Part shown: piece after piece, positions 15,273 through 46,908 of the stretch
Numbering within the stretch: position 1 is the stretch's first letter
Layout: each line of letters starts with the position of its first letter
Source: Neolecta irregularis DAH-3
Lineage: Eukaryota
NCBI GenBank assembly: GCA_001929475.1
Contig: LXFE01000491.1
Coordinates: 1-60,932, forward strand
Length of the DNA: 60,932 bases
Reading direction: 5' to 3'
Notes under the pieces: model-generated
The model's input: the letters and a program-made list of their open reading frames with translations, nothing else
The model's database searches: none
Told to the model about the DNA's origin: nothing
Position numbers and translations under genes: made by a program

Positions 15273-15929
15273 ATGTCTTGTTCTATTCCGAGGATGAACG
15301 AACAGCATTCGGCATTGTTAGCGTCTGCGAAAAGTGCCGGAATTTGTGGTATATGTGGATCTGCGCTCGGTGCAATTCTCGCCTATCGAACGGGCCAAAC
15401 AGTCGCAGCAAATGCAACTGCAGCCGGACTCAACTTGGGGATCGCGGGAGGCTCTATTGTGGGTGTGGTGTCTACTGGTTGAAATATCTGATCCGCATTA
15501 CAGGTATCAGGGCAATTGTACTCAACAAAATATTTCCAGAAAGCAACGGCGCAGACTGGAATGCATTTGGAGCAACAACGGCGGTGGGTGGTGCTGTAGG
15601 AGCGACGTTATACCGGACGTACAGTATGACCTTTTTCTCTTAGTTCAATTGGAGCTGATATGGTTGATGGTCCGAAGGGATTATTACCAGGACTAATCGG
15701 TTTTGCTATTCTAAGCGGATTAGCACAGTTGGGTTATGCAGCTCTGCGTTCAAAGCCCGAATCATCTGGCGCTGTCAAACTTCCTAGCGCTTGGTTTCCC
15801 GTACAGCGAATTACACCAGAACAACATAAACTCTATCTTATTTCAAAGATCAACAAGATCGACGAAGAAATACAAAGCATAGACGACGAATTATTGTCAT
15901 TGGAGAAACAGTCGACAGAACCACCGTAA
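15273..15929 (+). CDS. Small Gly/Ala-rich membrane protein, Tim17/Tim22-like, with C-terminal coiled coil (3 exons)
   Basis: GxxxG-rich TM segments, GPKGLLPGLIGFAILSGLAQLGY, and tail WFPVQRITPEQHKLYL..KINKIDEEI. Acceptor of intron 2 is ambiguous. Confidence 0.65.
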
Positions 15930-17374
15930 AAGTGCTCTGTCAGCTTTATACCCAGGATTATCATCTATCAATCATGAGAGCCAGTTAATTTGTGCAATTA
16001 TCTCTCAAGATATTGATAGCCATCTCGGGTTTAGCAACGGTCCATGCATCCCCGAATGGTTTGCAATTGGTTGTAATACCCTTTTTCTAGGTTTGTGTAG
16101 GTTTGTCTTGGAATGAGGTTTTAGTCTGGTTCATTTCATTAGAGCAAGGTTTAATCTGTCTCTCTCCTGGATTCAACTCTTTGGAAATTTAATGAAAAGT
16201 TTGCCCTCTTGATTCGAAAGATCATAGGCCTTAGTCTTCTTTTTTACATCCTGGTTGCTGTTTGGGCTGACGATATTCATCTAATACCTCAGTTATAATC
16301 TTCATGTTTTCTCTATTGCTACCTATCTGCAGTACCTCGCTTCAGTATTAGCCAATCCATCATATTGGTCTCTACCAGCTATTTCGTGAAAAATGAAGTC
16401 ATTAGAACTCCCTTGTTTATCGATTGATTGTTGGTCAGTTTTATTAACAGCAGGCAACTCTTAATCAATGTTGATAGAGAGAGAATTCTAATCCGTTCAC
16501 ACTTCTATATCTCCAGTCAAAGGCCTTGCCTTCAACTCTCTCAACACTCAACAAACTGATGATCAGCTTTTCTAGCACTAGTAATGCATGAACATTACGC
16601 CTAAAATATACCTTTCAGAGACATGGCATCCGCTAGCCAAGCTTGACTAATTTCCAATTTGCCGACAATTAGTAATTGCTTCACCTTGTCCTTCTTATAA
16701 TATACTTACATTCAATACAAACGAGGTTTACCTTTACGTACTTTACTTCTGACCAGCTCACTAAGAATCCACGAGAAGAACTAAATTTGGAACTTTAAGG
16801 GGGTCTGGGACTCGGAGGTCGCCTGAACGGTCAATGTAGCACAAGTGATGTGAACAAAGTGGTTTCCGGAATGTAATGTGTCACGGTATTTCATATCCAA
16901 CCTCGGCATTATTCACACAATCTATTAAAACCTCAGGCTCTATAATGCCCTAGTTTTTTTTATTAGTGTTGTTATCATTTGTGAACAAGAGTACGGAATC
17001 GCCGGAATAGGGAAAAGTTTCTAGAGAAAGAAAGTGCATATTTTGTCCGAGATTCGTTGTCATTGATTAAGAAGTTATGCTGCTAATAAAAAGTTCTGAA
17101 TATCCTTATTGTTTACCATTCTAGTGCCAAGCAGATGAGGGCTGGAATGTTCAATCGTGATCTGATATTTTAGAGGTTCGGCACGACTTAGCTGAACTTC
17201 AAACGTCCGTTATTCATCTCGTTATCTTACAACCACTGTTCATCCTGCCTGGTATGAAGATACATAATTCCTTGATGAGCTGATATTTGGCCCAGGTGTC
17301 CATACTAGGGAAATGATTTGCTGAAGTAACCCGAGAGAATTCAGGAGTATCAAACACCCACATACTTTCGACAC

Positions 17375-20300
17375 ATGGCGCTTTGGTCGCTGACTTTGAG
17401 CCTTCTCGGGTTCTTATTCGTCTCCTTGTACACCGTATTTTTCCTCATCAACAAATTCACTGGAGTTTTTATCAGTCATTTTGGGTATCTGTCGCTGAAA
17501 GGGATTCATTATTCCGGCTATAAAGGAATTGTTGCGAGTGCACGACGCATTGGATTCAGAATTCATAGACCTACTATTGCAAGGCCGACCTGGCTCAGTC
17601 TAACAATATCAAAGGCAGACATCCGTGTAAACCCAGACACCATTCGAACAAGACCTTCAAACCCCTCAAATGACATAGAACCTTCGAATTCTCGTCTTCA
17701 AAAGGAAAAGATCAAGAGCTTTGTCGAGGGAAAAATATTCGGGTTTTCATATCTTAATTTATTCAAATGGATCGATATCGAAATAAGAAATTCGGTTATG
17801 AGGTTGGACGGCATTGGGGCAATAACTATAGGTAGCATTGGGTTGACATCTCGCATCAACAGGGTTCCTGGTGCAAAACTAGGCAGCGACGCTTCTTACT
17901 CTACAAATATCTCACATGAAGTCGAAAAGATCCTTGAAGTTGCGTTCAATGTCAGTAATTTTCTTCTCTCTTTCCAGAATGGTCCCACCTACGAAGTTTT
18001 CAATCACCTTCTGTTTACATTTTCTGGTATTCTTGAAAAGCAACATTTTTTCAGGAATACAAAAGTCGGTATCAAGTTTGGGAGTCTTGACCTAGTTTTG
18101 GATGACCTATTTGAATTCGGAATCTCGGTACAGCGTGCATTCAAGAGGTTACAGCCCCTTGATCAGCCGAAGAAAAATCACAAGGTAAAGCATCAGGTTG
18201 CTGTTAGGGGCTAAACATAAGCTTGATCAATTGCTCGAAATTCCGCTCCTCCAAGTGTTTGAAGAGGTTCAGGTTCACGTCAGTCATTTACGTATATCCA
18301 AGAGATTAATACTTGCACCGTCCACGACCCCAGTGAAATTCCATATTAACCTGAAAGATCTCGGGTTTGATCTCGAGCATCTTCATGAACCCCGTGCTTT
18401 GCACCAGTTACTATTCAGTTCAAATACTATTGCACATCAAGCCCTAATAACAGCAATATCCTGCACTATCGAAATGGAAATCACACAGCAAGAACAATCA
18501 ACTCAGCTCGTCAGTATCCCGATGATTACTATTGCTTTAAAGTCTACATTACTCTCTCGGTTGTTACTATCAGTTCCCATGGAAAATCCCAACCATAATG
18601 TCCTGATTGCGAATATCGTGGTTACTTCCCCAGCGGCGGTGATTCCCCTGCGCCACATACCTCTTTTTCTCGCATGCGCTCGAGCCGGGTCGAGTCGTGG
18701 TGAGGAGAATACCAATCAGTTACACTTCATTTCATTTCTGCCCAAGTTTACTTTGAGCTTTGCCGTCCACGAGCCAGCATTCAGAATTTCGATGCCGCAG
18801 CAGAAGGCAACTGAAACCCCTGATTTTGATCGAATTCTGATGTTAAACTGTAGCAATATGCTGTTCGAATCTCATGGGCGCCATACTACATCTGAAGGAT
18901 TCGATTATTGCTTACAATCCACTATTCGTTTCGCTACAAAGCGTATTGCTCTTTTGGACGCAGATGGAAGGGTGTTTGAAATTGGATCGTCTGAAAACAT
19001 ATATGTTAAGTCGATTATGGAATCTGTCAATACTCGAAGTTTATCTATGTCAGTCTTGATCGAGGGGTTTATTGTGGATATTTCCAAGCCAGAAATTCAA
19101 GAAGCAATTACTCGTATAACTACAGTAATTTATAAGAGTACCGAACGCACGGATCACTCAAAGCCAAGGGTGCATCATAGGAATATACTTGACGTAGTAC
19201 CATCTTTCATTGCCTCTTTCAAATTTGAAGGTCGTGATATCAGAGTTATCATTGCCGCACAAAATGGAGGGGCTGAATCAGAATCTCGAGGTCTCGCAAT
19301 TCAGCTCGAATCCTGGACAGCTAAATATTTCAACAAGCCACAGCCAATGAACGATGAACGAGTCATGAGTCCCTTCTCACCAGGACGAGATCGTGAGCAA
19401 ACATTATTGTCGCCGTCATTGTCAAATTATACTGTAAAACCTGTCGCAATGATGTCAATGAACGAACGGACAGATCTTCAAGCACTTGAAGATGAAAAGC
19501 TTCGAACTGCATCCTTATCTTTGAGCTGCTTCGAAATCATCGCTATTGAATCGGAAGATACATGGGATCGAGAGAACCCAATTGTCGCGGTTCCTTCAAT
19601 TGAAATTAGTGCTGCTGTAAAACGAGACCAGGATAGCGGCGTTTTCGAAGTGAAATCTCGTATCGACGAGGTCAAGGCGAACTACTCACTACTGAAGCTT
19701 TTCATTATCCTCAGCACTTTGCATCTGCTTCAGGAAACATTGTGGCGAGAGTCAAGCAATGTTTCAAAGAATCCCAACCTTGTGACGGCTTTACCTTCAA
19801 CTCTGATGCCAAAAGACATGGTCGATCTTGACTTGAAGATATTCTCAATTTGCTTGAAAGCAAAGTTACCTCAGGAACAAGCGATCTTACTTGATCTCCA
19901 TACTATAGAGTTGACCCGGTATCGATGGGGTGGTCCGGCGTTGAAAATCAAAGCCGCTCGCTTATTTGTTCCGAGCCCTAGTATTCCTAATACATGGGAT
20001 TGTTTATTGAGCATTCGCCAGCTACTTTTTGAACGCAAAGAAGCCATTCATTTTACCTCGTGGCCAGGTTCACTTGGCACAGAAGGGAATTTCTCGATCT
20101 TCGCCGATGCTATTCGCTTTCGTATACCTCACAAATTTATTCTATATCAGCTGGTCGACAGTATCAAGAATAATGTTAAATGTGCAAAGCAGTTGCATTA
20201 TAAAATTTCGACGGGGCGGGATGACGACATGATTCATCCTGAACCAGAAGACGCTCAAAGGATCCCTCGTCTTCGCCTGAAGGCGAGAACTATAGCTCTT

Positions 20301-23300
20301 GAATTAGATGGCGATCCTTTTGAGGCACGACTGGGATTGATTTGGCGAGTTGGCTTAGCGGAACAAAAGTCTAGGATGGCACGGGAAGCAGCTTTTGAGA
20401 TTAAATGTGCAAAACTCGAACAGGAAGCTACGGAGGGCCATATCGGACGATCCGAGTCTCGAGATGGAAGCTCCCGGCCGTCTTCTCGCCACAGCACTGG
20501 TCGTCGAAAGTCGATGCGATATGCGCCAGATCAAGTAAAAGAATTCACAGGAAGCGCGGTAATCAGTGTCAAAGAAGCCCGCAAAAAGCTCGATCGACAT
20601 AATGCCCAATCTTGGGTCAAAAGAATAATTGCTTCACGACAATTTGTCCAGGAACATGTTGCTGAATCGCGGCAATGTCGATGGAGCAAAAGCGACTTCT
20701 CGGCTACAATGGATACTCGCGAAGAATTCCTCCTTCCATTGCCATCTCGACCTCCACTGCTTCATGCAATATTCTCAAACGTTGACCTCCTCTTGGATCG
20801 ACCTTCTTTTCCTCTCCAACAGCTTCCAGATTTTCTTCACGAGGTGGGTAAAGGGATGCCCAAGTCGACCCAATACACGCTTCTTGTACCTATGAACATT
20901 CAATGGACAATGAGTGAAGCAATCATCCATCTTAGCGATTTCCCGCTTCCCTTCGTGCATGTTCCAAAAATACATCCTTCACAACCCTCTCGACTTGTCG
21001 CATGGTCGTTTAGTAGCGATCTTGTTATCGCTGAAGAGTACGGTGGCCCCGATGCAACTGAATTCACCGATATAATGATCATTCCCCCCAATATTGGACG
21101 CAGAAGCTCCCCAGCCTTTAGCGTAAAGGTTCCCCGAACTGTGCCCCCAGTAAAGACCTATGCTACAATGAGCGTTGATATCAATTCTTTTGATGCTACA
21201 CGGATCACATGGGGAACATCCCTGCAGCCATCTATCCAAGAAGTCATGCGGATAGTAGAATCCCTTTCAAAACCACCGGAGGAAGCGTCTCAAAAACTCG
21301 GATTTTGGGATAAGATCCGATTAGTACTTCATACTCAGATAAATCTAAGATGGAAGGGCGATGGTGATTTACAGCTGATATTGAAAGGTTTTAGGTCCCG
21401 ATTTATATGTATTGACTTGCTTGTAGGTTCTCGTAATCCTTATGAAGTTATGGGGCACGGAGCAGGTTTTGTGAAATGTTGGCGTGGAAATGTTTGCTGG
21501 AAGATAGCCTGCGATCCCGACAGTCGGAAACTCGTCGTAGTTGAGAGCGACCAATTCATCCTTGCAATCCCCGACCTCACACATTTTGTGGACTTCTCCC
21601 TCGAACGGCTTGGAGAAGACGATGTAACGTCACGGGATAGTGTGTCGAGCATGAGTGCGACAACAATCCACAAAGATTCTTTTTTAAAGATTATCATGAA
21701 ACTTGCCGGTCGCGTTCGGTGGACAGCAGGGCTTTATTTGGAACAAGAATCTGTTCATGGTGAAAGAACGACTGGAAACGTCAAGGATCAAGCTTTTAAA
21801 CCGCATTACGAAATTCACATCAAGAACCCTGAGTACTCTGCACGATATCCTGTAGGTCTGGTTATCAACACATTCTAATGATAGGATCACGATGCCTATT
21901 TCGGATTTCGAAGTCATTATCTCCATGCCCACCTGGCTATCGAATGTCCAGTCGAGGAGGGTCTGCGAAATGAAGACTCAAGCAGCTACAATGCTGTTCA
22001 TCTGAGCCCGAAAACATTCTCACATTTCTCTGTCTGGTGGCAGCTGTTTTCGAGTGTCATGTCGATACCAATTCGCTCAGGAAAGCTATTTCCCGCCACT
22101 CCTGAGTCTAAGAAATTTGGCAATCATCTTATGACGGTTAAATTTTTGCTAGACCTTGCACCGTTATGGCTAAGTCATATGTACAAGCATAAAGATATGG
22201 AAGACTGGTCTCGCGGAACTGTTACAGCAACCGGAATCAAAGCTAAAGTTGACCGTTTCTATCTCGACCTACATCAACGCAAAGAAACACGCAAGATGAT
22301 CTTGCCCGAACTGAGCCATGTCCGTACCATTCAACACATGCAAACGAATGTAGGGAAGATCGAAATCGATACAATGGACCTTCGAGTTATTACTGCCGAG
22401 TTTGATGAAGCCAATGCCGACGATTTTCATCAATTCCAGCGCAAAAAGAAACATCGTGGTCAAAAGGATCAGCCCAATATGGGTGGCTCTTTCAAGCGTT
22501 CTCGCTTTGGGGTTCACGATGGCGACATGGACTGGATTGACATGAACGATTTCATTGAGCTAGATTGGGTGTTACCTCAAAAGGATCCAAAATGTACCGT
22601 TCTACCATTTGCACTTGCTCCAAAGTTCACATTTGATCGGCAAACGGATCATAAAGCACATGCAAGACCGGGTAAACTGTACACATCGAGAAGTCAGTTT
22701 GGGGATGAGCCATCCCATTTCTGTCTCATGGGCAAACACCAAGGTAATCCACGCTCCGGTTGAAATATTGATCAAAATAGATTTACGCGAGGTTCAACGG
22801 GATGTGATTCAAACACGCCTGCTCGAAATCAAGGACCAAATCTCCAAGAATATTGAAGTCTTGAATTTACTGGAAACCCGTATTGCGTCTGAAAGCGATA
22901 ACAGCGATCTTCGTAAACAAGTTGGTGCTTTAAAATTATCAATGTTCTAAAATCCTTAGTCAGAGATTACCGCAGATGAAAGCGCGATTCTGTTCGACAA
23001 GCGTACTTTTCTCGAAAAGCTTTTGAGAACTGCTACTTGGCCCGATAAAGAGCAACGAATACGTCTTGAACATCTTGTCCACGGGCTTCATAACGCATCG
23101 CCATCTCAAGATAAATTTGGTTTTGCTGAAGACGTTGATGAATTCAGCAATCGCTTTGGAATACACAACATACAGCTGAAATGGAACAACAAATTGCGAA
23201 ATACCGTTCTTAGATACGCACACCAAGTCAACAAACGGCGAGGCCATATGTACTACATGTCTCAGAAAGCGGTTTCATTCATCGAAGGCCTTGTTAGAGA

Positions 23301-25933
23301 ACAGCAAAAAAATAGCGAAATAACAGAGCTCCCGGATGACCGCCCTCGAACCACAAGTACCACAGCTTCGGATGATACAATTGGCCAGTTCTTGCAAGAT
23401 GCGCAAGCCTTTTTCCAATTAGAATGTCAAGAGCATAGCTGCCAACGACGTGGCGCTGTTGTCAGTGCCCCGAACGAAGATATAATGGGAAACCTTGCTG
23501 AAGAATACGAAGCTCAAAGCAATTACGTGGTGAAACTTTTAGCTCCTCAGATTCAATTGATGAGCGAGAAAAATCAAGATGTCGTTGTCATTTTATCTGC
23601 AGGCTCCATGGAACTCAAAGTGGTCGCTATTGTCGATAAAGAAATCCTTGACGATGTAAGCGGCCTCGTGCAGCAGAGATTTTCCGTGACGATGGAGAAT
23701 GCACAGTTCTTTATAGCAGAAAGGGATGACTTTACTGATCCAAATGCACGTCTTCACTCGTCGAATAACTACGGATGCAGCCTCGACAACGATATGTGTT
23801 GGCCACCATGGGTTCCCCTGGAGACTGTCCTCGATTTCCAGTCCAGACCTGCTTCTTTCTCACGTGTAGTGAGCAGAACAAATGCAACTTTGCGATACGA
23901 CAAGTACAACAACTTGCGTCTAAAAGTCGATCGTCAAATCGACGAAAGCAGTCGAGACTCAGTAGGTCACCCTGCGCTATCCAGTAAGAGACAAGGGGAT
24001 ATCCTTTCTGTCAAATTTCCGGGTGTTGAAGCATTTGTCAATTCGTCGCAATACCGGGCTCTCACGCAAATCGTGATGGATCTTCTCATTTACTCTGAAC
24101 CATTTCACAAAGAGCAAAGCAAAAGGTTAGAAAAAATCATGTTGTCAACAGATTTTACCGACTTGGGAGGAGCTCCAGAAATGGTTGTTTCATTGCAAGA
24201 ACAACTTCGACAACTTGAGGAAATCAAAAACCAGTTCCAACTCTCGCGTCATCTCGATCGACAGAGTTGTATTGATCAGGTTACCCTCGAGTCGGAAATA
24301 CATGATTGCGAAGAAGACCTTTTCTTTTTGATGAAGGCAATCACTACAGCTCAACAAAAATTGGAGGACCGCGAAAGGGAAAATTCGCCTTCTGTCCGTT
24401 GGTATATCTCTACTGAGGATCTGATTTGGCATCTCCTCGGAGAAGGGGATGCGCCGTTGGTCGATCTTCGACTCAGCAAAGCTCGTTATGGCCGCGTGGA
24501 TAATACTGATGGTTCTAACTTCAATATCGTTGAGGTCGATGAGATGCAAGGCACTAATCTACTCGAGAACAGTACATATCCCCAACTTCTTGACAAGTAT
24601 GAAGGAAAGAATGGAGAGCCTGTTACAAGTCGTAGAAAGCTTGTTTCAGCTTACTGGTATATGCTCGAGTCTATCGGAGGAATCCCAATAATTAACCACT
24701 TCGAACTTGATTTGGCTCCCCTGCTGCTTCAGCTCGACCACAAGATTGCTAAAATCCTGTTCGCTTACGCATTCCCCGAAAAAGATAGCGTTGTTTCATC
24801 GAATATAGGCAAGGAGAAGGAATTTGAGGACGAGGATGAGGATGACAGTGAGGCTGAAATACTCAGAATGAATGGCGAACGTTACAAATTTCCCGGGAAG
24901 ATTTCTCCAAACAGTGGAAGCGGATCTGCCTCTCCTGCACGGATTACCAGTCGTTCCTTTTTAGCTCCTTCCGATATAGGTGGTGAAAGAAAGGTTTCAT
25001 CAGATGCCGCCTCTATCCGGTCTTCTAGATCCACTGCTTCAAAGCTTTTCCGGAGTGGAAGTGAACAAAAGACCGAACCTAGTCAAGCAGATGACGTGAC
25101 GAGCATGATGTCTCGTGCTTCTAATAATATTGCTCTTGTCAAAGCTAGAATTCCGAGATTTGTACTTTGCTTGAGCTACAAGGTATCATACCATAAAAGG
25201 GTGAAATTTAATTGGAAATAGGGTGCTTCGAAACGCAATTTTGTCGATTGTCAACAATTTGAGCTTACTCTTCCTACGATAGAGTACGCGTATAAGATGT
25301 GGTCATATATGGACTTAGCCCAGCATCTCAAGAAAGGTAAACTGTTGGAGAAGAACAGTCGCTAAATACTCTAGTTGTCACAAAGGCGGTCATCGGCCAC
25401 GCTGGAACTTTCCTCATAGAGAAAGCACGTCGTAAGAAGAAACCCGAACCAGCGCCTCGTCGATTATTTAAGAAGATTTCGATGCAGTCAATGCAGTCAA
25501 TGCGTTCGGGACAATCCAGCTACTCGAATGGAAGTGATCCGAGTGTTTCGTCTGAACGGCTTCACTCCCCTATAGACGTATCACCACCTCCTAGCGTGCG
25601 TTCAGCTCTGAAATCTATGACCAACGCAACTACGATCAGACAATCTGATGAACGGGCTGTCATGTTTCCTAGACAAGTTACCTTTAAAGGTTCAGAGAAC
25701 ACTCTTGATCCCGCACAGAGTGGAGACGAAGGCGAGACGAGAGAGGTATGTTTTCATACACGAGGCACAACAGTGATACGTAGAGTTTTTTGAGCAGGAC
25801 ACTTATAAACCTTCGTGGAAAACCAAATGATACTGACCCTGAAGAAGGAAAACTACACAGGGCGAAACTTGACACCATCAAGTTCAATCGCCGAACTAAT
25901 AACGCGAGCAGCGGATCTGAAAAAGACGAATGA
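17375..25933 (+). CDS. FMP27: Bridge-like lipid transfer protein Fmp27/Hobbit/BLTP2 (about 9 exons)
   Basis: N-terminal anchor, DPFEARLGLIWRVGLAEQKSR, signature LGFWDKIRL and WPPWVPLE motifs, C-terminal GGIPIINHFE and LCLSYKG. Confidence 0.95.
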
Positions 25934-26256
25934 CGCATTCATTTCTAATTTAAAATCTATCTTCTTATCCATTCATTATATTCATTGTATAGCTACTTTG
26001 GCGTTCGGGATAGGAGGGAGAGATGGATGGATGGATGAAACTGTACCAATCGCTACATTCTAACGATCATACGATCCTTGGCTGGTATTCATATACGGAT
26101 CTTTTGAAAGAGTGGTAGTCTCGGGTGTTGAAGATCATTCTTTTGTCATACAAATCGTTCATTTCTATACCTGTTGAGGTCACTTCTCACATAATCTTAA
26201 GACAACGACTTTGTTTAAATTAATATATGCAGCTCCCTGACACCGACACAGTAGCT

Positions 26257-26695
26257 TCAAGAATTCTGCCGTAAAATAGTATCAATATGCTGTTTTGAAT
26301 TATGGCTTGTGATCTCAAGATTCTGAAGTTGCGACGAAAGTTTCCTGATATTCTGTTGACCTGCATCAATTTGAGACTGGAGGTCTGTCCGGATGTCAGA
26401 AATATCTGCCTTGATAAACCTGGACTAGTCAGTTGTGCCAATTCAAGAATATTACATCTTTCCAACCCCTGTATAAACATTATTTTCCACATTGAGGCCA
26501 CAACATTGAGTCAGCGTAAGTTCTAATTGCCGGACTTCAGTTTCTTTTGATTGAAGCTGACTTTTGACAATGAGGATTTTCTGACGAGATGATTCTTCCT
26601 GGATTTGGATCTCCTGAAGTAGCTATAGCATTAACGAGGGCTTATGTAACAGCTTAAATTACACGCTGTAGTGCTTCCTGCGACATGTTCGACAT
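26257..26695 (-). CDS. PFD1: Prefoldin subunit 1 (3 exons)
   Basis: Spliced product MSQEALQRLLQEIQ...IVKSQLQSKETEVRQLELT...VYTGVGKMFI...LQNLEITSHNSKQHIDTILR. Not in the ORF track as such. Confidence 0.9.
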
Positions 26696-29650: not shown

Positions 29651-32600
29651 CTACTCGAATAACAATTTGATATTCTCCAATGTTTTCAGTTTTCTTTCGT
29701 CGTTGGTCATACTCAACGAACTAGCCACAAAGTTTTTCCGGTCCTGGATAACCAACATCCGCTCTTCGATAGAATCTTTAACAATGAATCTGACAATTCT
29801 GACATTTTCAGTTTGTCCCATTCTATGTATCTAAAATCAGATATTGCAACAAACCGCAGATACCCGATCAATTGCTTGACTCTCTGTTGCAAAATTCCAG
29901 TATGGATCCATCATGAATGCTCGACTCGCCGCAACTAGATTTAATCCAACGCCCCCGGCTTTTAAACTTAACAGTAATACCAAATTCCCTGTATGGCTTT
30001 TAAACTGATCGAGAACTCTAGTCCGTCCTTTCTGATCTATACTCCCGTCTAACCTCACATACTTTATGCCTTCCCTAAAATGTCATATTCTCACGCATAT
30101 TACCGGGATAAACCGTTTAAACATATGTTCAATAGTATTCAAAAACGAAGTAAACTGACTAAACACAACGCATTTCGTACCAGGTTGGGTCCTTCGAATA
30201 GAAATTAAATGACCCAACAGTGCATTCAGCTTCGCCGAAGAATAGGAATTAAATCGACGTAGACTGACATTTCCCAGGGTCTGAGTTCCTTCAGGATCAC
30301 AGCGGATAACGCTATACAAGTCGTTTTCAGTGTACGGTTCCCGGCATTGAAAACAACTAGTAGGTTCGCCTTTTTCTTTTTGAGTCTGAGATTTAGCTTT
30401 CGAGAATAAGAGTAGGAGACCTCGATGTACCGCAGAAAACAGGGTTTACAAGCCATATGCCAACATGGGGTGATAGTCTCTTCCATGATCGGTTCAAAAC
30501 AATACGGGCATTCATCAAGACTCCCCTGCTTGATTTTCTCAATGACCGCGGTTCCAAATGTATTTTTATCCGCTTTATCTTGGCTGTTGAAATTGGCAAC
30601 AAGGTTTGACAATGCAGCATCGTCAATCAGTCCGTCGTCGTTTGGTGCAACGTCTCCATCGTCAATTGTATCGACAGTCTGTTTAACGAGACTAGGATGA
30701 TCGCAACATTGACGCAATCGAAGAATCATACTCAAAATCGTGGTATAATTCTTCAAAATCGTTCCAGCTTTTACATTTGCAGTAAATGTCTGCTTGGCTC
30801 GGGTATATATTAAATCGTAAATTTCCCGTTCCTTGGATGAAAGTTCCAAGTAGTCCTTTTCGATTACTTTATCGGGTAACACAACGATCGGATTTCCGTT
30901 TACATCTTTCATATCTTTGGTCCGTCGAAGGACTAGCGGTTCGAGTACAGTCTACTGTTAGTAGATAACAAAACGTATATTTACCTGAACGACATCCATC
31001 GCACAAAGGTAATCGCCACTTTCAAAAGGAACAGTAATAAACGTCCTCCAATACGAGAAATGTCCCCAGGGCTCGATTCCAAGGAAATTAACTAAACTGT
31101 ACAAATCCTCCAATTTATTCACAATTGGAGTTCCGGTCAAGACCCACCGACGTTTAGCTTCAAGGTGATAACATGCCCGTGCAGTTTTACTGGCCCGGTT
31201 TTTTATTAAATGTGCTTCGTCAAGTATAATCCGGAAAAACTCGACAGCAAATAAACCAATTTGATTTCTCGGTGACTTCTCTGTATCAAGTTTACTCCAT
31301 TCGGATTGGACTACACCATAACTAGTGATGACGACGTTTGGCGCAGACTTTCCGGTGCACAAAACTGAAAGATCGACATGTTTATCATTTCCATAGTACA
31401 CCAATACAGAAAGCGAATTTCCTCTTGATACAGCTTCTGCTTCTGATTTCCACTGGGATAAAAGTGACATTGGGGCTACTACTAGTGTTGTATTAGAGGC
31501 GAATTTAACACCTGGGGTAGACGATGTATAGTCTAATTCGGTGCATCTAACAAGGTGGATGAGACTGTACTTGGTTAAAGAACGTTGGCAGGGTATACCT
31601 CAGCATTTCAATAGTTTTTCCCAGACCCATTTCGTCTGCTAGAATTCCTCCTTTACAAGCCTGAGTAACAGCAGGAAACTCTAGACTCAATTCACCTCAA
31701 GATTAGATGGCGAGAGGTAGGTAGAACGAACCTGAATAGGGATTCATGTAGAATTTGGTTTCTCCTTTATGAACGATTTCGCTGTCATTCTGGTCTCTTG
31801 TGGGCCAATGATATTCCTGCCAAAGGGGGTGCATACTGACCGTCTGTCTCGCAGAATCGTCTTGCATCTCCTTGTGCGACATCCAGTAAAGGGCTTGCTT
31901 CTGATAATGCCGCAGTTGGAATTTGAAGGTTGAAGGAGGGTCAGCGGTAGGCATTTTTAAATCGAATAATTGAGCTTTCTTGTATAGTGCGTCGAGTTGA
32001 TCGCTTTCAACTTGTTTGCCACCATCTTCATCCTCTTCGGAGCTATATATTTTGTTGTCTAGTGGTTTCTCTGGGGTTTTCTCGACTGCGATGACTTGAG
32101 CTTGTGAAAAATTTCCTGATTTGGATGGTTCCAGGTTGATTTGATTGAACAATTTGAGGATGGCAAGTCGACGAGCTTTGAGAAGATGATCTTGATTAGT
32201 ACCTGTATCAGATGGATGCTGAAAAGGATGTTTTTGATCGGTTTTTATTTCAGGACGTTTCTGATTTATTTTAGGGCCCTCCTGATCAGTCTCTCTTTCC
32301 AACCGATGCTTCTGATCCATATTCTTCTGATCATTCTCTCTTTCAAAAGACCGATTCTCAATCCCAAATGCATTTCGAATGACAAAGCAACGAATTTGTA
32401 TAGCAAGACAGTCTGCAACGGCAAGTAATTCAGGTGAGTATATACAAATTCCATCAAATTCGCATATTCCAAGATCGATTAAAGTAGATATTAAGCCAGC
32501 CCACTCTGTAGCCAACTTAGCGATTTCTTTTCCTTTGGAATTTATGATTCGTACGACAGTATTGGTTTTTAGAGAGGTGGATGGAAATAAACGTTTGGAT

Positions 32601-35038: not shown

Positions 35039-35215
35039 TTTGAGACTTGGAATACATAGGCTAGATTCGAGTACAGTATAATCACAGGCCGTAGGGGACA
35101 CCGTAAATAGAGAGCTACAACTTTGAACTGAATCATCGAAATAGGTCAAAACACACTATCCTATCTACGGAGACAACTCAAATTTTTATATGGTAAAAAC
35201 ATCCGCAAAATGTGA

Positions 35216-36204: not shown

Positions 36205-36460
36205 GTTGATATATACTTTGGCGGAGGTGTCTCGATGGGAAGCGGCTTGATTCGTGGCCGAGTTTTCCAAGGTTGGACTGTTTTTGGAAAGTAGAGCAAA
36301 TTTACGGCATTTTTGAACTCCCCCTCCAAATACACGCTTCTTCATCAGTTGCCCGGATTGACTAACAAAGTAGACAAAGTAGAACCCAGTATGATTTACC
36401 ACACAATCAAGATATTCAAACGATGATTAATACAGATGACCCTTGTGCCGTGATCTTAAA

Positions 36461-37220
36461 TCACACTTTATCCCGTTTTGCAGCCATCAACTGTCTATAC
36501 TGGTCAATTACTCTTTGCCTCTCGAATCCCAAAACAGCTTTTTTCGCCAAACTCAGCTTTCTGGGTAAATTTTCTGCCATGAATTTTGCGGGTTTAGACA
36601 AAGAAGGCGGCGCCTGGACGATGTCTCCAAACTTTGGTTTTTTGGCAAGGTGAGCAAAAGGATCAGGGGACTGACCACGCGGAGTTGACGTCTTGGACTT
36701 CCGTTTCCTGGCCCGGCTGTAGTCTTCCCTTAGACCCTCAGCGTCATGATCTTGCGGTATGTTAGACGCCTTTGATTTTTTCGACAGTGGTTCTGCATGT
36801 CGGTATTTAGCAACTGGAAGCTCTAGATCAACTCGTCTATGCTGTAAGTCTTCATTCAACAAAACAAAGTATGTACCTGGAAAAATCATGCAATTTTTCA
36901 CCCGGAAACGGCACCAACTTTTCAGTATTCTTCACTTTTCTCTCACCAGCAATGTTCTTTTTCGCCTCGAATTTTTCGCCGGTATCTTCCGTCGACTTTT
37001 GCACGCCTTTCATCATCCGCAGAAAAGATTTTGGTGTAGCTCCACCTTCAACAATCGTTCGCTCACAATTCTCGAATTTCCTAGTTCTTTTCGGCTGTGT
37101 GAAATCTTCAGGCGGTGCGTTAGGCCTGATTCAGTCAATTTTCTACTTTCTATCATGACAATGGCAATACTTGGCTTTATTTGCGTCCCGGATAGATTTC
37201 TTTTTCCGTTTATGAGGCAT
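36461..37220 (-). CDS. Basic probable nucleolar protein, CCDC137-like (3 exons)
   Basis: MPHKRKKKSIRD..., TPKSFLRMM, PGEKLHDFSR|RVDLELP, SPDPFAHL, FGDIVQAPPSL and ERQRVIDQYRQLMAAKR. Confidence 0.75.
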
Positions 37221-37492
37221 CGTGCGTTTCTAGTCAAATTTTGTTGTCGTGGCGGCGTCAATTCACCCGATCTGGAATTATTATCGATAAAAACAACGGA
37301 CTTGTGATTATTCTTGAGATCGCTGAAATACAGTAGGTGGGCCATTCTTCAGATGCTCAGTACGATGGATTTCTTGCGGGACGAGATAGAAACGATCTGG
37401 CTGACATGTTATGCAAAAAGATATACATATATTGGTATATTTGCTATATCTATTTTAGAATAAAGGTGAGATAAGACATAATCAACTTGTAA

Positions 37493-38228
37493 TCATCCGA
37501 CCAGACCCTCTGGATCTTTGGAAGAGTTTCGATTCAATGGGTCTCTCCATTTGTTATTGCCTCCTGTTCTAAATCTTATAAATTCAAGACTGCTAATCGT
37601 GAAGATCAGAAGCCCCAGCCTTGATGTCAGCCTTGTGCCTCTGTTAACGGCCATACCAAATAAACCACAATATTTTAAGTACAGTTTTAGACTTGAAGGG
37701 TCCACCAGGTTTATACAGCCCAAAAGTAATCTCTACCCAGCTGAGCGGCAGTATAATCCATCCAAGAATCCAATGTGGAATGTCCGTAACCCAGGAGTCA
37801 CGTCTTCTGTTCGGAAAATGTCTATGATACAGGGATAGAAAGAACCCAAAAGTGAATTGTGTAAGGAATGCAATGTAAATTGCTAGACCGAGCCGTTTAT
37901 GGAAGTTGTTGAATTGATATATTGAGGCTGCTCGAATCAGTTGAACAGTATATGAATTGTCACGTACAGAGATAAACCGCAATGGTAAATGATATGGATA
38001 TAAGGATCGCAGCAACTGTCTGCAAGCCGACATGAACTACGATGAATTCCTTAGGACCATTCCTTGGAAGTCGTCGAAGGTGACGTGCTAAAATAATTCT
38101 GGAATTATTGAGACGCCCTGAACGTACGCTTACGCTGTAGGAACTGCTACTCCAAATGTGACGAACATCATAATGCCATGGGCATTCCAGCTTTGTGAGA
38201 TACTAGGTTTCACTCGTGGTGTAGACAT
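37493..38228 (-). CDS. Cytochrome b561-domain membrane protein (4 exons)
   Basis: Four heme-ligand His motifs after splicing: AHGIMMFVTFG, VHVGLQ, FHKRLGL and PHWILG. Confidence 0.8.
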
Positions 38229-39184
38229 GCTTGTTGAAATTCAAGAGGCAATAGGATGTGAGATTCGGTTTTATAGCAACCGATCAGGTTGAATCTTCTC
38301 AAGCCTGACAAAGAAAATAAAGAAGCTCAAAATAAACAGGAGCGATCTTTTTAGTACAAAAGTTGATCAGACTATCACTCATGATTTGAAATAGACCCCC
38401 GAAATTACAGGGTATGCTGAATAATGCAGTGTCTTTTGTCGAGAGCATCAACATTAGTGGTATTCTATTGGGAATGTATTTTGGCGTTTGAAGAGTACCC
38501 AGCGCTCCAAGTGTCTCACGAGAAGACGAATCGACTACCGGCAATCATAGCCCGGCTAAAACCTGACCGTTCATCTTGGCGCGACGAGTAAGCTCACACC
38601 CGCCAGCCCAATGTTTTCTCAACAATTAAAAAGATGATCATATCATCCGAAGTCAAAGTATTTTGGAAGCGGATGAGCAGGATTTTGAAGTTTCAATGGC
38701 ATATTTAGCCCGTAAGATAATAGAGAGCCATCTCTACAAGCGCATGATTTAACCAAATCAAAAAATAATTTGAACTCGAAAACAAACAACAGGAGTAGCA
38801 ATTAAAAGGGCCATTACTTTAATGAAACCCAGAACAAAAAGAAAAGGGGAACGATGACCAAGTCGATATAGTCTATTCGTATCCCAAGCCCAAGCGTAAA
38901 TTTAAACAAGACCTCACTTGTAACAAATGGTGAAACTCGAATTTCAACTTGTGGTGACCTGCATAAATCAACGCTGACAAAGAAACTCAAAAATTAATAC
39001 TTGACTCTAGTCCCCGTCCCTGGTGAGAAATGGGGGAATTGAGGGTTTTAATTCGAAACTCTGGTCTAGAAGGCAGGGAACAAGAAGATAAAAACCTGTG
39101 CCTAGACTCAAAGACGATTTTTCAGAGTTGATATTTTTGAGCCAATGATCCTGCATTTAAAGCAGCAGTGATATTGAGGGTGTA

Positions 39185-39914
39185 GGAAGTTGATGCCAAG
39201 ATGGATTGGCCCTTATCCCATAACCCATGTTGGTGTCAGTGAAAATTACGAGCTAAAACTGCCACCTGACATGCGGAATTTTAACAAGTTCCACACCTTG
39301 CTTCTTAAGAAATTTCACGGGAATAACACTACATTATTCCCTAATCGACCACTGTATTATCCCCTACCAATTCATTTCGAAGACAGGTACCCAATGCATG
39401 AGGTTGAGAAGATTTACAACCATCAGATCTCGGGAGGGGAAAATTTTGCCTTGTCAAATGGAAAAGATTCTCAGATGAGGAGATATCATGGGAATCCGAA
39501 ATTCACATGAAAAATGTGCAAGCTTCAATTCAATCTTTTCTTAGCTCGAGGTCAAGAAAACTGGAATGCGAATTCTGGCAGACCAGGAGGGTGTGGAAAA
39601 AGTCTACCGCACCCTGGCCAGTCCCAGCAGAGCGACCGCCGCAACTCGAGCCCAGGAAGCAGCAAGGGACGCAGCCCCTCCCATTCAGGCCGATCACAGG
39701 CATTGCCACCCAGCAAGTCAAAGGGAGGAAAACAGGCAGAAGATGGTAGCAAGCACATGTGCTTAGCCTGTATATAAGTAGTGTTTAGCCGGACTAGCTG
39801 ACTAGACTTAACCCCCGATATCCAATATACGTAATTGCTTTAACTTGAAGCACCTGTGGCAGAATACCCAACCTATGTCCATACCAGCACCCACCCCAAG
39901 GTTGTGTGCCGACA
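39185..39914 (+). mobile_element. 3' remnant of a Ty3/Gypsy chromovirus (integrase C-terminus, chromodomain, PPT, probable LTR about 39592-39914)
   Basis: KLMPRWIGPYPI...YELKLP...FHTLLLK (GPY/F region). Frameshifted chromodomain EVEKIYNH / LVKWKRFSDEEISWE. Purine tract AGGAGGG, then TGT...ACA containing TATATAA. Confidence 0.85.
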
Positions 39915-40115
39915 GAGGGTGTATGCATTGTCAAACTACTTTTGAAATTAACATTCGCTATCAAACGTTGACATTATTGGATAGAATATGTGAATGGAAT
40001 TTCCATACAAGATAACTGACAAAAGAGAAAAATATGATAATGAATAGAAATACTTATATAATGAAACCACTGACGCAAAGCTCTAGCACCCAAGAAATCT
40101 AGCAAACACAAAGGT

Positions 40116-42212
40116 TCAATTTGCGATTGTACCAGTAGTGACAAAAGATTGCGCTTTTTCCAAATTATACTTGAACGATAGCCAAAGCTAGGTCAGTCAG
40201 CAAGAGCCAAAACTGGGCTAGACACACTCTTGAAGTAGAACCGTTTCTATCCATCTCAACAACAATGATATCAACCGTCTCCGTCCGTTTCTTATCATTC
40301 ATCGAAGCAAATTCGCGGCTTTTTCGGGGCGCCATGTATCCCATAGTAGTCAAGGCAGACTCGATTTCTGACCGAAGATTGAATCTCCAATGATAGAATT
40401 TATGATACCACCTCGCACGAGCCAATATCTCAGTATGAGTAACAAAACTTGTATACCATGACAAAAGCGACCGAGAAACCAGGCTCGATCGTCATCCACG
40501 ATACTGCTGGTTGAATCAGAATCAGAATCACTGGAACTCGTGGGCATTAATGTATCTCGATGATACCTAGGACCCTGGAACCGAACAATCCAAGTTGCAT
40601 TGCTAACGATTAGGGTTGAAAGTGTGGATGATACCGATTGGTGATATTACAAGCGTCGCAACGCATCCCTGTATTGCTCTCTGCATCACTGAAAATAGGT
40701 CTCGCTTTGATCGCCGAAGAAAAATTATGTTTCCAAGCGGTTGAAATAAGAACGGAATCACGAATAGAATCAACTTTCTTCTCAAATGCCTTTAACGCCA
40801 ACTGAAAGTAGTTTTGGTCCAAATTCATTGCTGGGTTAAGTAAACGATGAACTTCATATTGAACGAGCACTTTGAAATGATGCGAGAGCTTTTGGTGAGA
40901 TTGCATTTGAAATTCAACAGGCATCTGGGTACTATCGAAATCTTCGTCCTCAGATTCGACTATAAAGTTTTCAGAGTTTACGGATCCCGAAGATTTTTCG
41001 CTTGTGCTATCATACAGCGGTTGACTATCTGTAGAAGAATCAACGTCATAGTTGTCTGTGTTGGAAGGCGCGATTCCTTTGCGCTCTAATAGTTAGATCC
41101 AAATTATGACAAAAGCGCTTCACTATTGCGAAGAGTGGCAAGTAATCTCTGTCGATTTGAAAGGGCCTTATTTCGACTGCTCTCGTCCCGTGTGCGTTTC
41201 GCCAACACTTCTATAATGTTAATAGAAATACGGAAAGAGTAATACTCCCGGCATCTAGCATCTTGATTTCATCTTCCAATTCTTCTACTTGCGATCCTGT
41301 ATCCTGTTCATCTGTACTCAGGATGCGATTTTTCTGACATGTTCTCAAAAGTCGAGGTTTCTTTGACGATGAGACTGCGCCTTCAATGTGGCATTTCCTC
41401 TCTGCAAGTTTTGGTTGCTCCATTTTAATTTCTTTGAAACTCTTCCTGTCCTCATCGGCGTCATGATTATCATATTTATTTAAGAGTAGAGAACGAGATC
41501 CCAGTGGAGGGGGTTCGGAGATATCTGCATCAGGGCTAACCGAGAAAAGAGAATCGACTTGGTCTGAAGATAGCTTCCCAGTGGTAAATTTCGAAGGATT
41601 TTCTAGAACCGATCCTTCAGGCGGTGTCCAGGCATTTTGCCTTGGTTTATCTGGGAATATTTCAGTGGCCACATCCAACCTTGTTTGTTTCAACTTGAAT
41701 TTTTTGTCGACACGAGTATCCAGAGGCTTATGATGTTTTGTGGGTCCAGATATTTCGGATGCAGCGCAATTTCCTGGCGCCTGGTCTCTAACGACAGATG
41801 TTCGTTTGCACTTCTTGACTCTTGCTGGGTGTCCAAGCCCATTGTTAGATAGACGAGTCTGTCTCGGACCAGAGGATTTTTCTTTTACTCTATTTGACTT
41901 CTGTTTTGGAGTTTTCGTCATCCCTTGAACGGGACCGCCTCTATTTTGTGGTGTATTTTCTAATTCTTTACTCGGCGGTAGCTGGGTGGATACAATATTC
42001 GATGGAGATTTCGATAGCTTTCGCTTGCGCTGAATAACTTGTACAAGTTCTCCAGGTCTGACAGGAGACACGGCTTGATTCACCTTTAGCGGATCCTCGC
42101 CATCATGAATAGTTGCATAAATAAGAGGACGTTCAGTGATATGACCCTTGGGTTCTTTTGTTTTCTTTTCTGGAGTATTCTGTCCTCTATCCTGTGATTT
42201 TCGGGCAGGCAT
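40116..42212 (-). CDS. DUF4211/CCDC82-like protein (6 exons)
   Basis: Disordered basic N-half. C-terminal STAWKHNF..AIKARP, CDACN and WFLGRFCHARARWYHKFYHW. One intron needs a non-AG acceptor. Confidence 0.8.
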
Positions 42213-42346
42213 TCAGATGATTCGTCAGATGATCCGATTAGCAAGGCGGGATGGTATCGATAAGCAGCCGGCAGTATTTGCATGTGCGGGGCTAATTAGC
42301 GGCAACCACCATGATCCCACTGGTCGAGCCATCTTGAAACAATATT

Positions 42347-43876
42347 ATGATGCCCTCAGACCCGTTGCCAGAAATATTCCAGGCGCACCTTGAAGAGACT
42401 CTGGCGCTGCAGCAGAAGGTGCGCGCGTGCTTGGGATCGGTGCTGCGGGATTATACAGCCAGAGAAGCCGACTATGCCGCGTCCGCAGATTACCTGCAAG
42501 ACACCGTTTCAGTTTTCAAGTTCTACCGCAGGGCGAAATTTGACATGGACAAAGCAGCAGCAGCTATCCTGGATAACGTGTTGTGGAGAATCGGGTTCTC
42601 GGAAGCCGAACCCAAAGACACCGTTGCCCATATGAGCCTGGCATCTTTCGATCAAACACTCAAAGCTCTTGTTTATGGACTGTTTTTCATTATTCCACAC
42701 GCCTTTGATATACACGGGAGGCCTGTTGGGGTGCTCCGAGTACGAAATATGATCCGCGAAAACGGCGACGCTGGCACAAAGGCCATCAAAGATCTCATTG
42801 CTTTCCAGCTCGAAATAGCGCGCAAATATATGTGGGCGTTGACTTCAGAAAACTGGGAAGAATTCGGAATGGAGGCAAGTAAAGCGATTACTAGATTCGT
42901 GGTCGTTGTAGACCTGGAAGGAGCTGGCATGTCCAACGTGGTACTTGAATATGCTTTTTGGTATAAATTCATCTTCTAGGCTGCCAATCTGATACCCTAC
43001 TTTATCGGTCTGTTGCGCTATCACTTTCCTTTGTCCATAGCGTCCGGTATATCTTCAAATATCCCTTCGAAACACCAACTTCATAGTCTACGTTTTGAAC
43101 TATAGTTGCTGGCATTTGGGCATCTGGCAGGTGGCAAAGCAAACCCTCCCCGAATCAGCTCTAAAAAGACTTAAATTTCTCTCCAAGGAAGAGATACAGT
43201 CATTTATAACTGCTTCGAATCTTCCCCAAGGTTTCTCAGATAAGCGGTGTCTACTAACTTCGCAGAATTTGGCGGAACCATGGAATATATCTACAATTAC
43301 ACCAACGATGAGATTCTCGTACAGTACGGTTTCCCTCGGCGGTACGTTGATGCCGAATTATACGGGCTCCAAAGACCAAAATCATGCGAGTCCATCGCAG
43401 ATGTCTTTGTCACGGCAACACCAAATACTCCGCTACATTCCAGAAGCCCATCGGTATCCGAAAACTTTAAAATACCATCCTCCCTGCGTATGACTGTACG
43501 TGCCCGAATACCAACAGAGCCACTTGCCCAGCTCACAGAGGTAAATCTCAACCAAATCGACCGCAAACTGGAAAGTCATGTACAAGAGTTGTCTAGTACA
43601 TCTGTTGTCTCGTTTGATCCATTTACCACCGCAAATGAGAGTGTGGTTCCCGAGAACAAGCCTATATCAATGCTCTACCACGTTGCACAGGTGGTACATG
43701 ACAACTCTGGTTGGCTATTGAACAAGGCGAAAAAATACGGCAAGAAAGCAGCCATACTTATGACTTATTATATTGTCTTTATGGTGATGTTCAATAAGGG
43801 CGGTTTAGTTGAAAGAGGGTTGAGACTATATCGCAGATCACGCATTCAAACTGCATTTGGACAAAATGAAATATGA
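42347..43876 (+). CDS. CRAL-TRIO (Sec14-like) lipid-binding protein with C-terminal TM (4 exons)
   Basis: FKFYRRAKFD...WR, DIHGRPVGVL, VVVVDLEGAGMSN, HFP...VYVLNY...IWQVAKQTLP and NLPQEFGG. Confidence 0.85.
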
Positions 43877-43879
43877 GGA

Positions 43880-44723
43880 TTAATATTTATTCTTGCTGTT
43901 TTGCGCTCCTAAGTAATTCAGTAAAGTAGGGGTATCTGGTATTCTACGTATAGGTTTCGGGACCTGAGGAATAAGATGCTTTGTTCGGTCATGGAGTATG
44001 GATTCGAACATTGTTAGCTATCGCAGTTAGCTGATTTTCTCACGTCAATGTACAAGTCCCGTCGATGGAATCACGCCTCCTTGAATCCATACTGACCAAG
44101 ATCCCATCATGTTGCCCATAATAACGTCTGTCATTAGTCTATCTCCTATTATTGCAATCTGGTCTGGGTGTGTAACTCCAGTTGAAGTTTCCGATTTGAA
44201 GAACGACATTATCTCTTCGTGACATCCGGGTTTCTATAACAATGAGGAATCAATGACTTTGATGATAACTGACTTTGGTGTCATGCCGAAGAACTTTGAC
44301 TCCAAGCCGTTGTTCTAATTTCATAGCCTGGTTGTTAATTAGATATCTCCAACTCAAGATACTTGATGGTACCCTGGATCGTCTTTAGTTCCCGCAGTAT
44401 TACTTACAATTATAAGTTTATCTCCCGGAAACTCGCCTCGCAACTGTTTCCATCGATCCTACTTGCATCATATTTCCTCTTCAGGTATCCCGATATACCT
44501 CATACTCGTGCCAAACTTCTAATCTATGAGGCCTCGCGAAACAGTTATCCTTGTCCAACACCACAGCCCGTATATCCACCTTTTCCCCAAACTTTGAAAA
44601 CGCACTGAAAAGCGGACATGGTAGATCTCCAAAAGTTGGTAAAATCGAATGCGGACAAATTAATGATGGGCGATATAATAACCGAAAGGCATTGAGCGAT
44701 CCACTCAGATTGAATGACATCAT
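43880..44723 (-). CDS. GEP4: Mitochondrial phosphatidylglycerophosphatase (HAD family)
   Basis: FNLSGSLN, AVVLDKDNCFA, IIVSNTAG, VLRH..KKPGC and IAIIGDRLMTDVIMGNMMG. Confidence 0.93.
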
Positions 44724-44967
44724 TTCGATAAAGTCTCTCTTGGGGTGTATGTAATATGCAAAAGGAATAGTCTGGGTCAAGTCTCGCAGTCAAGTTGAGA
44801 TTACATTCCAGACACATACATACCCTTTGCCGTCTCTTCATTTTGTTTATTCGATTGAATTGAGACAAGTTCCTTATGCGACTGAATTTTGATGTTCTTT
44901 CAGAGGCATATACACATCCATTCAGTTACATTTACACCAAATGTCACGCGAAACACCAAAATCAATA

Positions 44968-46908
44968 ATGCTTGCCCTCCTTCTTGTCCTTTTATGTCAG
45001 ATATCGTTAGTTTTTGGTTATGAGCAATATATCGTATTAATCCGCATTTGTCGCGTCTGTTTACCGGATAGTCTGAAAGTTTCTCTCAGCGTCAACGTTG
45101 CGCTGGAATGTATTCTCGGAAAGACGCAGGGGGAACCATGGATCCATTTATCGAAGGTAACTCTGAAATTTGAAGCGTTTGCCTGATTATAGTAGTCGTG
45201 ATTCTGCCGAGTTTATCTGAAATGACATCAATTGTCAGTTTGGTCATCTTCGAGTTCAAGGATTTGAACAGGCTCGGCAAGGCTCCAGAAGGCAGAAAAG
45301 AGGTATTTTCACGTCATTGGAGGACTACTCAATCTTCCATAGCTGTCATATTTATGCGATACACTGGCCATCGAAGATAAACTCTGCGTGGATGATCAAT
45401 ACGGACGATATCTGGTAAATTTGGATAAGTCCAATAAAACTAGTATTGTGACTGTTGCAATTGATCTGATGGATCCCATTCCTGTCAAGTAAAACTCCTT
45501 CCTGGTGAATTTGCCAAATATCAGGTATCCAATATATTCCACGGGATATTATTGCGTAGGCACCGAGCCATTCATGAATGTGGAATTATATGAAGGAATC
45601 GTTGTTTGGCGTAATTCCTATGGCGAGTTACCCGGTAGGACTGCTTTTATATATTTTCTCACATGAATAGCTGCGGAACTGCCTCGATTGGCATTCTACG
45701 GTGCGTTGACAATTGCTTACGCCTTGCTTGGTGTGTTTTATGGCTTTCTGTATTTTCGACACCGAGACGACATTCTTCCACTGCAAAACTATATCTCGGC
45801 CATGATTGCTTTCCTTGCCATTGAAATGACTTTTATCTGGGGTAGTGTGCCTCCAGTAAATTTTCTAAGTAGCACTTAGGATATTACCACAATGTTGATC
45901 GGTATGGTTATACAGCTTCGAGTCACGGTATTGCCCATGTTTAGATGAATCTGACCTACACAGCCTATCTTGTCTGGGTTGCAATTATGAGTGCCTTTCG
46001 AAATTCCTTCTCACTCTTTCTTCTTTTAATCGTGAGTTGTTTTACGAGACATTGACTGATATTCATGTCTCAATGGGATATAGTATCGTCAAACCATCGC
46101 TTGGAGGGGAAATGAAGCGCATTCGGTTACTTGCGGGAGCTCATTTCATTTTGGGAACAATGTACGCAATCTTGACGATGTTGACATCTCCCGAGGATGG
46201 AGGATTTCTCGTTCTCTTGGTGATACTTCCACTAGCAGCTACTATGACAGCCTTCTATTCCTGGACGCTAAGCTCATTGACAGGAACAATCAAGTATTGC
46301 ACTGTTAATTCACAAAATAACAACTTTAGATACCTTGCAGAAAGAAAACAGCATCAAAAGGGCCTTTTATATCGAAGGATTTGGAGACTCCTTATTTGTA
46401 GTATACTCACACTAGTCGGATTCTTCTTTTTCAATTCAGTTTTGTTTGCCAGAAGGGACGAAATTGATTTCATCGTTACTTTTTGGAAATCTCGCTGGTT
46501 CTTCCTGGATGGTTTGTTCATCGTTGATTTGTTTTATCTTACGGTAAGGTTGGTTGAATGTCATCTACTATGCCGTCTTTGCTACCATCGTCTTTTGGTT
46601 ACGCCCAACAGCCAATAACAAGCGATTCGCAATGAGTCAAGAGGTTCTCTCAGTCGTATTTTTCACAACTTACGTTATAGCTCGCTCAGGAGGACGGTGA
46701 CTTTGAAATTGCAGAATTTGAAAGTGACGTCGAGAGTAACATTGATACAACGCCCCGTGTCTCCTCTGTGCCTCCACATGATCGTCCTCCTCATGAAGAA
46801 CACAACCAACAAATCTTTGATATTGGAGATGAAGACTCCGAGCCTCGTACAAGTCTAGACAGACCAAGTCGAGAGTTTGAAAAGGGCGAGCAAACAGGTT
46901 TGAAATAG
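44968..46908 (+). CDS. PTM1: Ptm1/GPR107-like seven-transmembrane (GOST) protein (about 12 exons)
   Basis: Signal peptide, CAGMYSRK...DPFI, TGYYCV, RNSYGELPA, DILPLQNYI, RNSFSLFLLLIVSMGYSIVKPSL, WKSRWFFLDGWLN and LRPTANNKRFAMSQELAQ. Confidence 0.93.

Follow-up and report, generated by a model that had tools for sequence, protein, structure and literature searches.

Two 35-nt introns with non-AG 3' ends in conserved genes of Neolecta irregularis

Contig LXFE01000491.1 of Neolecta irregularis DAH-3 (assembly GCA_001929475.1), a stretch of 60,932 nucleotides hereafter referred to as the window, contains two introns of 35 nt in conserved genes, the 3' ends of which are not AG. One of them (hereafter referred to as I2; 46032-46066, forward strand) lies in a GOST/PTM1-like gene and ends in CAT, and its removal at this non-AG end was directly confirmed in a transcript-derived contig. 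The other (hereafter referred to as I1; 40422-40456, reverse strand) lies in a DUF4211 gene and ends in TGG; homology confirms it as an apparently real non-AG intron. Both are probably ordinary U2-type tiny introns in which the YAG end has been altered at one base and ligation occurs at the old position. A reading of the window from its letters (hereafter referred to as the sequence-only reading) had proposed these introns and a third candidate, the positions and sequences of which were as it had described, together with an AG-independent system of 3' splice-site choice.

Transcript-derived contigs and intron I2

The contigs of run X2 were compared with positions 38000-48000 of the window. This run carries the label "DNA?", and the search for runs gave none recorded as RNA. 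The X2 contigs on this interval had 22 joints over short segments and no mismatches to the window. Among the 15 joints listed, the skipped segment was always 35-40 nt long and 14 were GT..AG or its reverse, CT..AC. We infer that X2 is transcript-derived, because sequence of the same genotype without introns looks like complementary DNA (cDNA).

One of the listed X2 joints connects position 46031 to position 46067, skipping 35 nt with GT..AT ends, as the sequence-only reading had predicted. It was found in one contig (depth 163.8; shorter side 69 letters), which also holds three canonical joints further downstream (46293, 46510 and 46641). The two sides of the joint share 2 letters, and sliding it gives TG..TG or GA..GT, with no AG possible. 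The X2 depth in the bin 46016-46349 is 129, corresponding to 263/334 of 163.8; no X2 contig therefore covers I2, and one joins across it.

The host gene, NEOLI_000605 (44941-46908, +), encodes a seven-transmembrane protein and was delimited on the basis of homology and the RNA-derived joints. The exons flanking I2 are in different frames, and only the removal of a segment of 2 mod 3 nucleotides connects them. Use of the next AG, the end of which is 17 nt further downstream, would make a 52-nt intron in the wrong frame. The product spliced at I2 aligns with the Lineolata homologue P0153 without a gap across the junction, and the exon 3' of I2 matches the Pfam family GOST_TM (1.1e-10). A metagenome scan returned only fungi, at 54% identity (loci L001-L003), and these loci encode the conserved stretch around the I2 position uninterrupted. 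These three homologues have no intron at the I2 position itself and one some few codons further downstream.

The public model of this gene (P0151) avoids I2 by a frame switch upstream, after which it reads 41 unrelated residues through the intron. It is thus wrong at I2: 41 wrong-frame residues before 46067 replace a conserved helix. The same model also lacks a hydrophobic stretch of 14 residues (at about 46430-46470, +), which is in frame in the window and is kept by a 90%-identical Joint Genome Institute (JGI) protein, P0152; an intron seems to have been called here erroneously.

Homology evidence for intron I1

The gene containing I1, NEOLI_000603 (40117-42212, -; lower bound approximate), was assigned to DUF4211 by a Pfam match of 8.5e-22, and the protein encoded at 40.6-42.2 kb (-) is identical to OLL25149.1 of N. 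irregularis DAH-3. In all nine DUF4211 homologues, including that of Saitoella coloradoensis, a GR-x-C motif is separated by 11 residues from an HW motif, with an A as the fourth spacer residue in eight of the nine and an H as the eighth in every one of them. In the window, one exon ends in ...FLGRFCH and the next begins with RARWYHKFYHW, in a different frame. Removal of the 35 nt of I1 leaves 11 residues between the C and the HW, with A in fourth and H in eighth position, and only a removal of 2 mod 3 nucleotides in this zone joins GR-x-C with HW. It was this spacing that bore out the TGG acceptor of the sequence-only reading.

The frame following I1 stays homologous to the C-terminus. Beyond the canonical last intron of the gene (40188-40227, -; 40 nt), the C-terminus matches the Saitoella homologue P0002 again, and the frame downstream of I1 is therefore truly translated. 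A search with exon 3 of the gene yielded no homologue. Eighteen 35-mers in 40338-40602 start with GT, all of them with an end other than AG, and there is no 35-nt GT/GC..AG segment in this interval; the next AG after the end of I1 lies 10 nt downstream and breaks the frame. When 100 GT/GC..AG pairs of 20-90 nt around I1 were tried, 18 left open frames, two of which keep both motifs: a 20-nt intron, with 16 residues between them, and a 32-nt intron at 40443-40412, which is considered below. The exact borders given here for I1 are the most probable ones.

A canonical intron of 32 nt (GTATCA..TTAG) lies further upstream in the gene (40603-40634, -), with a piece boundary of X2 record 10 at 40635 and a following exon that matches the homologues. 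The public NEOLI_000603 protein (P0001) reads 7 residues into this intron and then stops. The public model is wrong, with about 130 C-terminal residues missing. X2 record 10 (1952 nt, depth 57.1) has one piece from 40635 and 377 letters below it, and the X2 depths are 45.7 in the bin 40338-40671 and 25.1 in the bin 40004-40337. A total skip of 67 nt (32+35) predicts depths of 45.65 and 25.13, two canonical introns of 32 nt predict 46.16 and 24.62, and the combination 32+36+41 predicts 38.5 for the first bin; a single canonical intron of 67 nt predicts the same depths as 32+35. This arithmetic, which presumes that only record 10 covers these bins, is compatible with I1 and not decisive.

Comparison with the canonical introns of the window

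The reference set consisted of 59 canonical introns of the window, against roughly 110 introns counted in the sequence-only reading; 14 of the 59 were RNA-supported, the other 45 being taken from our own predictor with AG forced. Their lengths were 33-47 nt, with 50 of the 59 in the range 35-40 nt. The donors were GTA in 45 cases, GTT in nine, GTG in three and GTC in two, and the 3' ends were TAG (44), CAG (9), AAG (4) and GAG (2); the statement of the sequence-only reading that AAG acceptors are common was thus overstated. A branch-like motif, defined by a heuristic yTnAy scoring, was scorable in 54 canonical introns, where the spacing between the putative branch A and the intron end was 7-9 nt in 37 and 6-11 nt in 48.

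Both non-AG introns lie in the middle of these ranges for donor, length and motif distance, and only their last two bases differ from the reference set. The donors, GTATAC in I1 and GTGAGT in I2, follow the local pattern, and both introns are of the length class of the species. By motif match, I1 has a candidate branch motif CTGAG (40429-40433, -; score 4.5), the A of which is 8 nt from the intron end, and I2 has a candidate CTGAT (46056-46060, +; score 5.5), the A of which is 7 nt from the end. The normal donors, lengths and branch-like motifs claimed for these two introns in the sequence-only reading were thus recovered. The 3' AG of U2-type introns is lacking in both: I1 ends in GG (GG..TG if slid by one base) and I2 in AT, and sliding of the joints gives TG or GT, never AG. 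Each of the two ends corresponds to YAG changed at a single base, to TGG in I1 and to CAT in I2. AG nevertheless is still strongly preferred in this system, since both exceptions are one-base variants of YAG. The term "AG-independent" was too strong for the window, in which AG is present in 14 of the 15 listed joints and in all 59 reference introns (forced in 45).

Alternative explanations

Several points weigh against the interpretation of I1 and I2 as ordinary introns ligated at non-AG ends. The predictor behind 45 of the 59 reference introns forces AG, and of the 14 canonical joints with RNA support it recovered 6 to 11, according to the intron penalty set. The acceptor bases were read from the assembly rather than from independent DNA reads; run X1 may be the source of the assembly, and its contigs were placed on the window only at the repeat 39722-39909, away from both acceptors. 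Rare variants are lost from contigs, and neither the efficiency of splicing nor competing AG isoforms can be read from X2. The branch points are guesses from motifs, and the sample consists of two cases in one window picked for them. For I1 in particular, the joint is absent from the 15 listed of the 22 X2 joints, and the canonical 32-nt segment 40443-40412 is in frame, keeping both GR-x-C and HW with 12 residues between them. These two observations favour a canonical structure at this site, for which there are three routes, all GT..AG with open frames: the 32-nt intron, a 67-nt intron at 40634-40568, and a pair of introns at 40566-40531 and 40408-40368, the last being the all-canonical choice of our own predictor. 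In the 32-nt intron, the 13 nt preceding the AG are devoid of A, so that its closest branch A would be 14 nt from the 3' end and no more than 18 nt from the donor; moreover, it ends in GAG and gives 12 residues where nine of nine homologues have 11. The 67-nt intron passes over two earlier AGs behind a consensus CTAAT, loses a stretch conserved in the homologues, puts the conserved C-terminus out of frame and is far longer than any reference intron, and the two-intron route removes the HW motif. A canonical structure at I1 is therefore considered unlikely.

A second explanation is that the transcribed DNA has AG at both acceptors, the base given in the assembly being at both sites an error or that of a minor or null allele. 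The acceptor bases do rest on the assembly, and fruiting bodies, from which both the DNA and the RNA were obtained, could mix genotypes (PMC5309816). Two independent substitutions would be needed, however, at acceptors 5.6 kb apart in an assembly for which a 199-fold coverage is given (PMC5309816), and the X2 pieces have no letter differing from the window across kilobases. X1 contains a fraction of 1.00 of 698 sampled words of 40000-46500, although it is not independent if it is the assembly source. We regard this explanation as very unlikely. The GT..AT joint of I2 could also be due to template switching in the cDNA at a 2-nt GT repeat, or to an artefact of contig assembly, given that the two sides of 46031/46067 share 2 letters and that the joint is in one contig only. 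A repeat of 2 nt is nevertheless expected by chance at about 1/16 of joints, the skipped piece resembles an intron in its GTGAGT start, its 35 nt and its CTGAT 7 nt from the end, its removal re-establishes both the reading frame and a motif that is conserved in P0153 and L001-L003, and the form retaining I2 is in no X2 contig. An artefact of this kind is highly improbable.

Minor-spliceosome (U12-type) introns include some with the terminal pairs GT..AT and GT..GG, and their 3' site is chosen by the distance from the branch point. The recognition of this site has been described as rather unspecific (PMC2374985), and variable 3' ends of this kind could account for both I1 and I2. However, on inspection against the consensus, neither intron has the U12 motifs: the donors GTATACAA and GTGAGTTG differ from the U12 donor, and a U12 branch motif is absent. 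In a published survey, Ascomycota had no convincing minor introns and had lost most minor small nuclear RNAs (snRNAs) (PMC10639083), and the Rfam and tRNA scans of the whole window returned no matches. An origin of I1 and I2 in the minor class can be practically dismissed.

Other candidate sites and neighbouring sequences

The third candidate of the sequence-only reading (15624-15666, +; 43 nt, ending in TTG, with a CTGAT motif 8 nt before the end) was not confirmed. A GT..AG alternative of 31 nt at 15624-15654 (+) is in frame and ends in GAG, with a weak branch motif; by our own rough estimate from length, branch motif and end frequencies, the two ends are about even. The open reading frame (ORF) downstream may also be a separate gene starting at 15660. 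No homologue of the candidate gene was found by exon search or in the PDB, in which there was one chance match (E 1.8). The Atlas gave weak leads only, the best with a score of 0.88, to unnamed clusters, one of which has NUJM_C in 38% of its members at 0.78.

In a RAD5-like gene (30074-30122, -), removal of the 29-nt GT..AG segment 30103-30075, whose branch-like motif is 8 nt from the AG, breaks the frame. Only two removals preserve it, that of a 30-nt segment, 30103-30074, which is GT..GG (GG..AG when slid by one base), and that of a 48-nt GT..AG segment, 30122-30075; compared with Kluyveromyces lactis Rad5 (6l8n_A), the 30-nt model is 1 residue short and the 48-nt model is 7 residues short. 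This site may be a third non-canonical one.

Our own gene finder, run with non-AG ends allowed, found neither I1 nor I2, and the 3-8 other non-AG introns it proposed were regarded as spurious. A scan joining ORFs yielded 18 junctions without a GT..AG solution but with a GT..non-AG solution and a branch motif. Some of these junctions, when checked by coordinate, were antisense to known genes, so that the background of false positives is high when ORF logic is used by itself.

X2 contig record 11 (3096 nt) spans three genes on both strands (42296-45500), with all introns removed. Neighbouring transcripts in the compact Neolecta genome therefore seem to overlap. At 39722-39909, many X1 and X2 contigs of high depth (hundreds) end or diverge, leaving loose ends. 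This segment looks like a dispersed repeat, and the window scans placed no tRNA or Rfam family in it. The GC content of the window is 41-47%; the genome of the species has 14.5 Mb, 44% GC and 5,546 genes (PMC5309816). Three runs of 10 N in the window (198-207, 9662-9671 and 60816-60825) are scaffold gaps.

Discussion

In tiny introns whose 3' end follows the branch motif by some 7-9 nt, the 3' splice site would be set largely by geometry. The branch motif would be bound by the spliceosome and, after the first step, the 3' site would be docked; where the branch and the 3' end are close together and no AG can be reached, ligation would take place at the nucleotide found at the usual distance, even though it is not part of an AG. 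AG would thus be strongly preferred, but not obligatory if none is within reach. According to structural work, the first G of the intron is paired with its last G, and the branch A with the A preceding that last G. Of these two contacts, I1 would keep the first (G-G) and I2 the second (A-branch A). The choice of the 3' site by distance from the branch point, as put forward in the sequence-only reading, fits these introns in that their ends lie 7-8 nt after the motif, as in the 37 of 54 canonical introns at 7-9 nt, and in that the next AGs break the frame; its term "AG-independent" went too far, AG itself being strongly preferred.

A comparable situation has been described in Saccharomyces cerevisiae lacking Prp18 (Roy et al. 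2023, PMC10711555), where ligation in U2-type introns takes place at BG-type and also at non-G sites, one of them CAU. In yeast, Prp18 and Slu7 are dispensable when the branch-to-3' distance is short, and Prp22 acts in proofreading (PMC10711555). The non-YAG sites used in the deletion strain are close to the branch point, as are the TGG at 8 nt and the CAT at 7 nt in Neolecta, but they are used at a low level, mostly unproductively, in a mutant also deficient in nonsense-mediated decay (NMD) (PMC10711555), whereas those of Neolecta are productive junctions in conserved genes of a wild fungus. Human TG 3' sites (Szafranski et al. 2007) provide another example of a non-AG dinucleotide used by the major spliceosome; they function only as alternatives, in association with an AG site close by, and no constitutive ones were detected (PMC2374985). 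In contrast, the transcript contig of I2 has only the non-AG junction, and the nearest AGs break the frame.

Splice-site pairs other than GT-AG, GC-AG and AT-AC are a rare class, to which I1 and I2 would belong, and greater flexibility has been reported for the 3' than for the 5' site (PMC7072748). These "other" pairs account for a mean of 0.257% in fungal annotations, annotation errors included (Frey and Pucker 2020, PMC7072748, Table 1), whereas 2 of 22 joints in 10 kb are concerned here, with I1 not among the 15 listed. At a rate of 0.257%, the probability of at least two such ends is 0.0015 for 22 introns, 0.011 for 61 and 0.033 for 110, values which give only an upper-bound impression, because the window was picked for this feature. 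As the two cases are in neighbouring genes, 5.6 kb from each other, a higher rate across the genome is hinted at, though not demonstrated. The main text of PMC7072748 mentions neither Neolecta nor the pairs GT-AT and GT-GG, and that of the Neolecta genome paper (PMC5309816) contains no mention of introns or splicing. Our literature search found no paper on non-canonical splicing in Neolecta, and among the papers listed for Neolecta and spliceosome, none looked pertinent by its title or the start of its abstract.

A more far-reaching interpretation is that the 3' site is set mainly by a 7-9-nt ruler throughout the genome, with AG checking relaxed and at least 1% of tens of thousands of tiny introns non-AG and yet productive, together with a loss or change of Prp18, Slu7, Prp22 or Prp8. 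We consider this interpretation tentative and rather doubtful. None of U2AF1, Prp8, Slu7, Prp18 and Prp22 was noticed in the window, in which the protein searches covered the three intron-bearing genes only and none was aimed at these factors. If such a relaxation were true, it would be a natural counterpart of the phenotype of yeast with prp18 deleted.

Few signals in eukaryotic genes are as invariant as the 3' AG, the checking of which at exon ligation is an active question. The non-AG ends of I1 and I2 suggest an explanation for the errors in the two public gene models. Such genes are mis-annotated by any predictor to which AG is a requirement, and other Neolecta models may share this fault. 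Conserved genes that need their exons to be joined at TGG and CAT, at 7-8 nt from a branch-like motif, would provide a natural system, in a wild fungus, in which it could be asked whether AG is dispensable when the distance from the branch to the 3' site is short, and which fidelity factors are involved.

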